Shown piece by piece: positions 51,121 to 51,331 of a stretch of 64,000 nucleotides of DNA (position 1 is the first letter of the stretch; each line of letters starts with the position of its first letter). This DNA is from Escherichia coli (GTDB taxonomy: Bacteria; Pseudomonadota; Gammaproteobacteria; Enterobacterales; Enterobacteriaceae): assembly GCF_013122565.1 (NCBI RefSeq), contig NZ_CP053258.1. The stretch is one strand, 5' to 3'. A program made the translations under genes and the position numbers. The notes under the pieces were generated by a model. It worked only from the letters and a program-made list of their open reading frames with translations. It was not told the DNA's origin and did not search any database.

Positions 51121-51331
51121 GCTCAATCTCACAAAGTGGACTAAATTATCGCCATTACTGCGCTTTAAATGACCTTTATGTTCAATATTTTTTCAATCTA
51201 GCAGTGGGTTTTCATTTTTGCAAACTCAATTTAACATTTGACAAACATTTAGTTTGCATACAGATTCGAATGGTGGTCATTATATTTTACGCTTTGATAA
51301 CGAGCGGAAAACAAACCAAAGGCGAAGAATC

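Follow-up and report, generated by a model that had tools for sequence, protein, structure and literature searches.

Predicted PuuR operators between the divergent puuAP and puuDRCBE operons of an Escherichia genome

PuuR represses the puuAP and puuDRCBE operons (PMC9397018) and leaves the DNA upon sensing putrescine (PMC7901475); induction of both operons by their substrate and autoregulation of puuR have been reported as well (PMC9397018; PMC9068703). In the 64-kb stretch of DNA analyzed here (the window), the question is where in the interval between the divergent puuD and puuA genes the repressor would bind, and which promoters it would cover. A sequence-only reading had described this interval as the 211-bp, AT-rich spacer where PuuR acts. 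The puuD start codon (51120..51118, minus strand) and the puuA ATG (51332-51334) do delimit a spacer of 211 bp (51121-51331), and its G+C content of 34.1% against 51.1% for the whole window agrees with the second part of the description. The names given to the two genes are borne out by the NCBIfam PuuD equivalog model and by the RefSeq names in matching E. coli genomes (Table 1). From the ORF layout and the NCBIfam matches, puuR adjoins puuD directly downstream, and the repressor is thus encoded in cis, inside the puuD operon; we take PuuR to be an XRE-type helix-turn-helix protein with a cupin domain. The interval lying between divergent puuA and puuD is very probably the shared control region of the puuAP and puuDRCBE operons, with PuuR operators in it. 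An Rfam scan of 50800-51700 gave a sole match, CRISPR-DR57, at chance level (E=0.8).

The sequence of this region is that of K-12. Positions 51061-51391 are 100% identical over 331 bp to E. coli K-12 MG1655 (NC_000913.3), with no difference within the control region, with the same repressor and with the same gene order, puuP-puuA followed by the divergent puuD-puuR-puuC-puuB-puuE. According to the K-12 literature, this DNA has four PuuR motifs and is bound by PuuR, which represses both promoters (PMC9951944, PMC9397018), in line with the earlier claim that PuuR acts here, and the control region is established K-12 biology with nothing new in it. A position of the control region in the window converts to K-12 numbering as 1,412,240 minus the window coordinate. 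The puu DNA on the two sides of the control region is 98.0% and 95.5% identical to K-12, and the mismatch-free run around the spacer extends over 417 bp (51054-51472). We dropped the idea that the perfect K-12 identity reflects special selection on the spacer: a second mismatch-free run, of 419 bp, within puuR/puuD is as long, so the perfect identity of the spacer is not statistically remarkable on its own. Farther downstream in the puuD operon, K-12 has a 125-bp repeat element between puuR and puuC, whereas the window is without it; the insertion (TATACACAAAATCATTCAAGTTGCATCAAGGCGGCAAGTGAGCGAATCCCGATGAGCTTACTCAGGTAAGTGATTCGGGG...) would fall at ~49726/49727 of the window, in the puuR-puuC spacer 49623-49771, and it presumably resembles the ERIC/IRU type of intergenic repeat unit.

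To locate the operators, a 15-mer that Nemoto et al. reportedly gave for PuuR in 2012, AAAATATAATGAACA, was used as a search lead. It has six matches with at most three mismatches in the 64 kb. The matches with zero, one and two mismatches (51102-51116, 51274-51288 and 51179-51193, respectively) are all on the minus strand and all in the control region, and the remaining three carry three mismatches each. An unsupervised repeat search grouped the same three copies, which are 77 and 95 bp apart, into one repeat family (D1) with box 1 as the reference copy. A literature text search found no paper carrying either the 15-mer or the 20-mer consensus given below. To be independent of the 15-mer, we made position weight matrices (PWMs) from orthologues, using 80 PuuR-encoding loci with one genome per species; the loci include Escherichia, Klebsiella, Enterobacter, Citrobacter, Raoultella, Cedecea, Buttiauxella, Serratia, Hafnia, Erwinia, Pantoea and Rahnella, and 60 divergent puuA-puuD spacers were aligned. 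The PWM built only from the non-Escherichia orthologues of box 1 ranked box 3 second and box 4 third among ~128,000 window positions, and the PWM built only from the orthologues of box 4 placed box 3 fifth, with the two strands of box 1 in second and third place; these matrices derive from orthologues of the same region and are not fully independent of it, a problem that the leave-one-site-out design lessens. The combined PWM has the consensus CTGTTCAATATATTGTCCAT (reverse complement, ATGGACAATATATTGAACAG) and is palindromic, with a correlation of r=0.60 to its own reverse complement in register and of at most 0.30 at other shifts.

The scan with a PuuR matrix that the sequence-only reading had suggested gave three matches above background: boxes 1, 3 and 4 score 24.1, 23.2 and 19.8 bits with the combined PWM, against at most 18.0 bits in 30 shuffled windows. 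The next-best match in the window scores 14.2 bits, compared with a mean shuffle maximum of 14.2, and elsewhere in the 64 kb, including upstream of puuP, puuC and puuE, the PWM found no box above chance. By this sequence analysis, the window clearly holds three predicted PuuR boxes, at 51101-51120, 51178-51197 and 51273-51292. The palindromic AT-rich segment that had been noticed by eye around 51270-51300 exists and corresponds to box 4. The expectation that the operators lie within 51121-51331 held for boxes 3 and 4 and failed for the strongest one, box 1, which lies outside over the puuD start codon; the operators take in ~20 bp of puuD coding sequence beyond the interval.

Table 1 Features of the puuD-puuA control region and adjoining genes in window coordinates.
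Feature	Coordinates	Strand	Sequence	Basis and position
PuuR box 1	51101..51120	 	ATGGAAAATATAATGAACAA (minus strand)	Exact 15-mer match 51102-51116; 24.1 bits
Candidate weak PuuR box 2	51136..51155	 	GTGGACTAAATTATCGCCAT	Putative; puuD 5' UTR, ~+35..+54
PuuR box 3	51178..51197	 	ATTGAAAAAATATTGAACAT (minus strand)	Two 15-mer mismatches; D1; 23.2 bits
PuuR box 4	51273..51292	 	GCGTAAAATATAATGACCAC (minus strand)	One 15-mer mismatch; D1; 19.8 bits
puuD(RCBE) core promoter	51195..51223	-	-35 TTGCAA 51223..51218; extended -10 TGcTAGATT 51203..51195	17-bp spacer
Predicted puuA(P) core promoter	51238..51266	+	-35 TTGACA 51238-51243; -10 CAGATT 51261-51266	17-bp spacer
ArcA-P site, four direct repeats	51217..51259	-	ATGCAAACTAAATGTTTGTCAAATGTTAAATTGAGTTTGCAAA (43-mer)	Exact match to published site
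puuR (repressor)	49772..50329	-	 	NCBIfam NF007408 PuuR equivalog, 385.5 bits (cut-off 211), full length
puuD (gamma-glutamyl-GABA hydrolase)	50356..51120	-	 	NCBIfam NF008471 equivalog, 573.8 bits (cut-off 266); RefSeq
puuA (glutamate-putrescine ligase)	51332..52750	+	 	RefSeq of matching genomes; glutamine-synthetase-family matches

The placement of the boxes relative to transcription starts depends on a published ArcA site. The ChIP-defined ArcA site of puuD is a 43-mer with four repeats that spans -70 to -28 relative to the puuDR start (Park et al. 2013, PMC3798270 supplement), and it is present here in full, which agrees with the description of such operators as TGTTA-like repeats at 11-bp spacing that coincide with a ChIP peak, the peak being that of the literature. 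The multi-direct-repeat ArcA-P operator of puuA/puuDR (PMC3798270) is thus unchanged over its 43 bp. Since the 43-mer fixes the register, the puuD start would be at ~51189, and this start made us drop our first guess for the puuD promoter, GATAAT at 51150..51145, and replace it by TTGCAA-17-TGcTAGATT. The hexamers were read from the sequence and are conserved in the 60 loci (TAGATT, 0.94; TTGCAA, 0.86). A sigma-54 reading of GGG...TTGCA at ~51206-51221 was rejected: its spacing deviates by one position, and conservation does not extend to the GG. The block ATCTAGCAGTG at 51196-51206 shows almost no variation between genera. The extended -10 TGcTAGATT of puuD accounts for part of it; the conserved CAGTG/CACTG directly upstream of the -10 lies outside that explanation.

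For puuA, which is listed as ‘no TSS’ (PMC3798270), we predict a start at ~51273 (K-12 ~1,360,967, minus strand) from the promoter elements. The -35 TTGACA has a conservation of 0.92 in the 60 loci, and the -10 hexamer is conserved at 95% or more at A2 and T6 only, a typical -10 signature. A simple promoter scan gave no promoter on the plus strand and missed this predicted one. The two -35 elements are just 14 bp apart, placing the promoters back-to-back. Box 3 spans ~-8..+12 of the puuD promoter, and box 4 would lie at ~+1..+20 of the predicted puuA transcript; both have a conservation of 0.90 over the 60 loci. An overlap between box and repressed promoter is therefore found for box 3 and puuD and, from the predicted start, is predicted for box 4 and puuA.

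Box 1 (conservation 0.88, as the mean majority-base value of the 60 loci) lies at ~+70..+89 of the puuD transcript, over the start codon and the six codons that follow it. It is dual-coded, and the operator also determines puuD codons 1-7: Escherichia has MENIMNN at these codons, and most other genera have MGNIFDK or a similar sequence. As the operator fixes these codons, the N-terminal variation of PuuD tracks the operator variants. A sigma-70-like match (10/12; TTGTGA-16-TATAAT at 51134..51107, minus strand) falls inside box 1, and transcription from it would begin in puuD; this match probably arises only incidentally from the TATAAT in the operator core. One could turn this argument around and regard the repeats as -10-like or UP-like promoter elements, or as AT-rich targets of nucleoid proteins, conserved as promoter DNA and not as repressor sites, given the perfect TATAAT in the box core, the promoter call inside box 1 and the 34% G+C content of the spacer. 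We regard this as barely credible. Box 1 is in coding sequence and box 4 is downstream of the predicted start, neither of which fits a -10 role, and the palindromic conservation reaches the G/C-containing outer arms TGG...CCA. The count of promoter-like matches equals the shuffle expectation (1 vs 1.1), and PuuR binding and repression have been reported on the same DNA (PMC9397018, PMC9951944).

With repressor sites as the preferred reading of boxes 1, 3 and 4, the number of boxes has to be considered, as the puuA-puuD spacer contains four PuuR motifs according to a biosensor paper (PMC9951944). A fourth box at 51225-51244, with a half-site at TTGACA, was tried and rejected; it scores 3.7 bits, and the ArcA repeats and the puuA -35 explain this sequence better. 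The segment 51136-51155 is probably, though unproven, the fourth PuuR box, a candidate drawn from sequence comparison. Its outer arms, TGGAC...GCCAT, fit the palindrome, its centre is divergent and its PWM score is only 6.1 bits. In the alignment of 60 spacers, its block TGGACTAAATTAT hardly varies between genera, and in Pantoea (locus L078) a box of 18.1 bits occupies the relative position of box 2, at distances of 36 bp to box 1 and 42 bp to box 3. Alternatively, and possibly, though we hold it to be on the unlikely side, boxes 1, 3 and 4 are the only PuuR sites and 51136-51155 is a puuD leader element, an alternative promoter or an AcrR/FNR-type site. The low score is compatible with this, and the conservation could reflect a leader or promoter element: GATAAT is legible on the minus strand at 51150..51145. 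An EMSA fragment shifted by AcrR (PMC9769551), which we mapped here to 51136-51361, starts exactly at 51136. FNR sites have been reported somewhere in the spacer (PMC9397018), for which we found no convincing placement in the spacer sequence. Against these points stand the four motifs counted in the literature, the arms that fit the palindrome, the strong Pantoea box at the equivalent position and the 42-bp spacing to box 3, which corresponds to four helical turns. With 51136-51155 as the probable fourth box, the box count would fit the four motifs reported for K-12, whose puuA-puuD region with its PuuR operators is the closest known system (Nemoto et al. 2012, cited in PMC9951944, PMC9397018 and PMC7901475).

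The arrangement of the boxes is conserved along with their sequence. Across the 60 Enterobacterales loci, the spacer length is near constant, mostly 210-213 bp, and the conserved blocks of the alignment coincide with the boxes and the promoter elements, with variable DNA between them. In 51 of the 60 orthologues, boxes 3 and 4 are separated by 95 bp, and boxes 1 and 3 are 75-77 bp apart in 56 of the 60. Measured centre-to-centre, boxes 2-3 and 3-4 are 42 and 95 bp apart, which corresponds to ~4 and ~9 helical turns. Speculatively, this conserved geometry would be compatible with cooperative binding or looping. The stronger version, in which the four boxes act as one phased array and PuuR oligomers loop the DNA to shut both divergent promoters together, is speculation that we consider doubtful. 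A separate arrangement was seen in many Serratia, where a second puuR is directly divergent from a second puuA across a spacer of ~395 bp (loci L058, L059, L062, L064-L066, L068 and L070-L075, at ~2600-3000). No puuD was detected between the two genes at these second-copy loci, and the PuuR boxes recur in the spacers at distances of 77 and 96 bp, with ATGG once more at the beginning of one of them.

PuuR shares the control region with other regulators. The ArcA site overlies both -35 elements (conservation 0.85 in the 60 loci), deletion of arcA raises puuA 15-fold and puuDR 10.6-fold (PMC3798270 supplement), and rpoS dependence has been reported for puuA and puuD (PMC3141248). These data might suggest that ArcA, FNR or sigma-S dominates the control and that PuuR has a minor role, which we consider highly unlikely: such inputs are additional and not alternatives to PuuR, and PuuR gave a 36-fold ON/OFF ratio on the puuD promoter in a host without the E. 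coli regulators (PMC9951944). Published data also speak for an effect of puuR deletion on puu expression. In these heterologous-host reporters, the 36-fold repression was obtained with the full-length puuD promoter, and repression of the puuA promoter was ~2-fold.

The switch very probably works as follows. Two promoters of the sigma-70/sigma-S type would fire outwards from the neighbouring -35 elements. PuuR, presumably as a dimer, would bind the 20-bp imperfect palindromes (ATGGaCAATATATTGnaCAg), and when seated on the boxes over the start-site regions, it would block the binding or the escape of RNA polymerase at both promoters; the downstream boxes may add cooperativity or a roadblock. Putrescine bound to PuuR would release the repressor from the DNA, so that the pathway, its transporter and puuR itself would be induced by the substrate. 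ArcA-P over both -35 elements would add anaerobic repression on top of PuuR. This scheme resembles that of the XRE-cupin repressors of Pseudomonas: PuuR is a homologue of PauR, and repressors of this type quit the DNA on sensing a metabolite of the pathway (PMC7901475). The Pseudomonas repressors belong to another genus and presumably have another operator sequence than PuuR. PauR-type repressors and PuuR have a common architecture of an XRE helix-turn-helix and a cupin domain, and their genes adjoin divergent targets.

Within the species, the control region is widespread. With 51091-51361 (271 bp) as a query, it is present in 4,371 of 5,426 complete E. coli genomes, and its identity is at least 99% in 4,209 of these 4,371. 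With a 2.5-kb query over puuA and puuD, an identity of at least 99% is reached in merely 4 of 4,373 genomes. The same 271-bp query has no match in ~1,055 of the 5,426 genomes, so about one in five E. coli genomes apparently lack the puu cluster. Six of the matches are on records labelled plasmid. As to the window itself, it is Escherichia-like, yet none of the 5,426 complete E. coli genomes is close to it in the two segments compared (20000-24000 and 50300-52800): the best identity is 98.0% for 20000-24000, with a coverage of at least 80% in only 30 genomes, and 99.0% for the puuD-puuA segment. The window may come from an atypical E. coli lineage or from a close relative of the species.

The meaning of these results is limited mostly to annotation, and they provide exact positions in the window for the ArcA site, the PuuR boxes and both core promoters. 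In the Escherichia genome analyzed here, every base of the textbook switch induced by putrescine has been retained. The cross-genus PuuR matrix (consensus ATGGACAATATATTGAACAG) could guide the design of putrescine biosensors and could serve to annotate PuuR regulons in other Enterobacterales.
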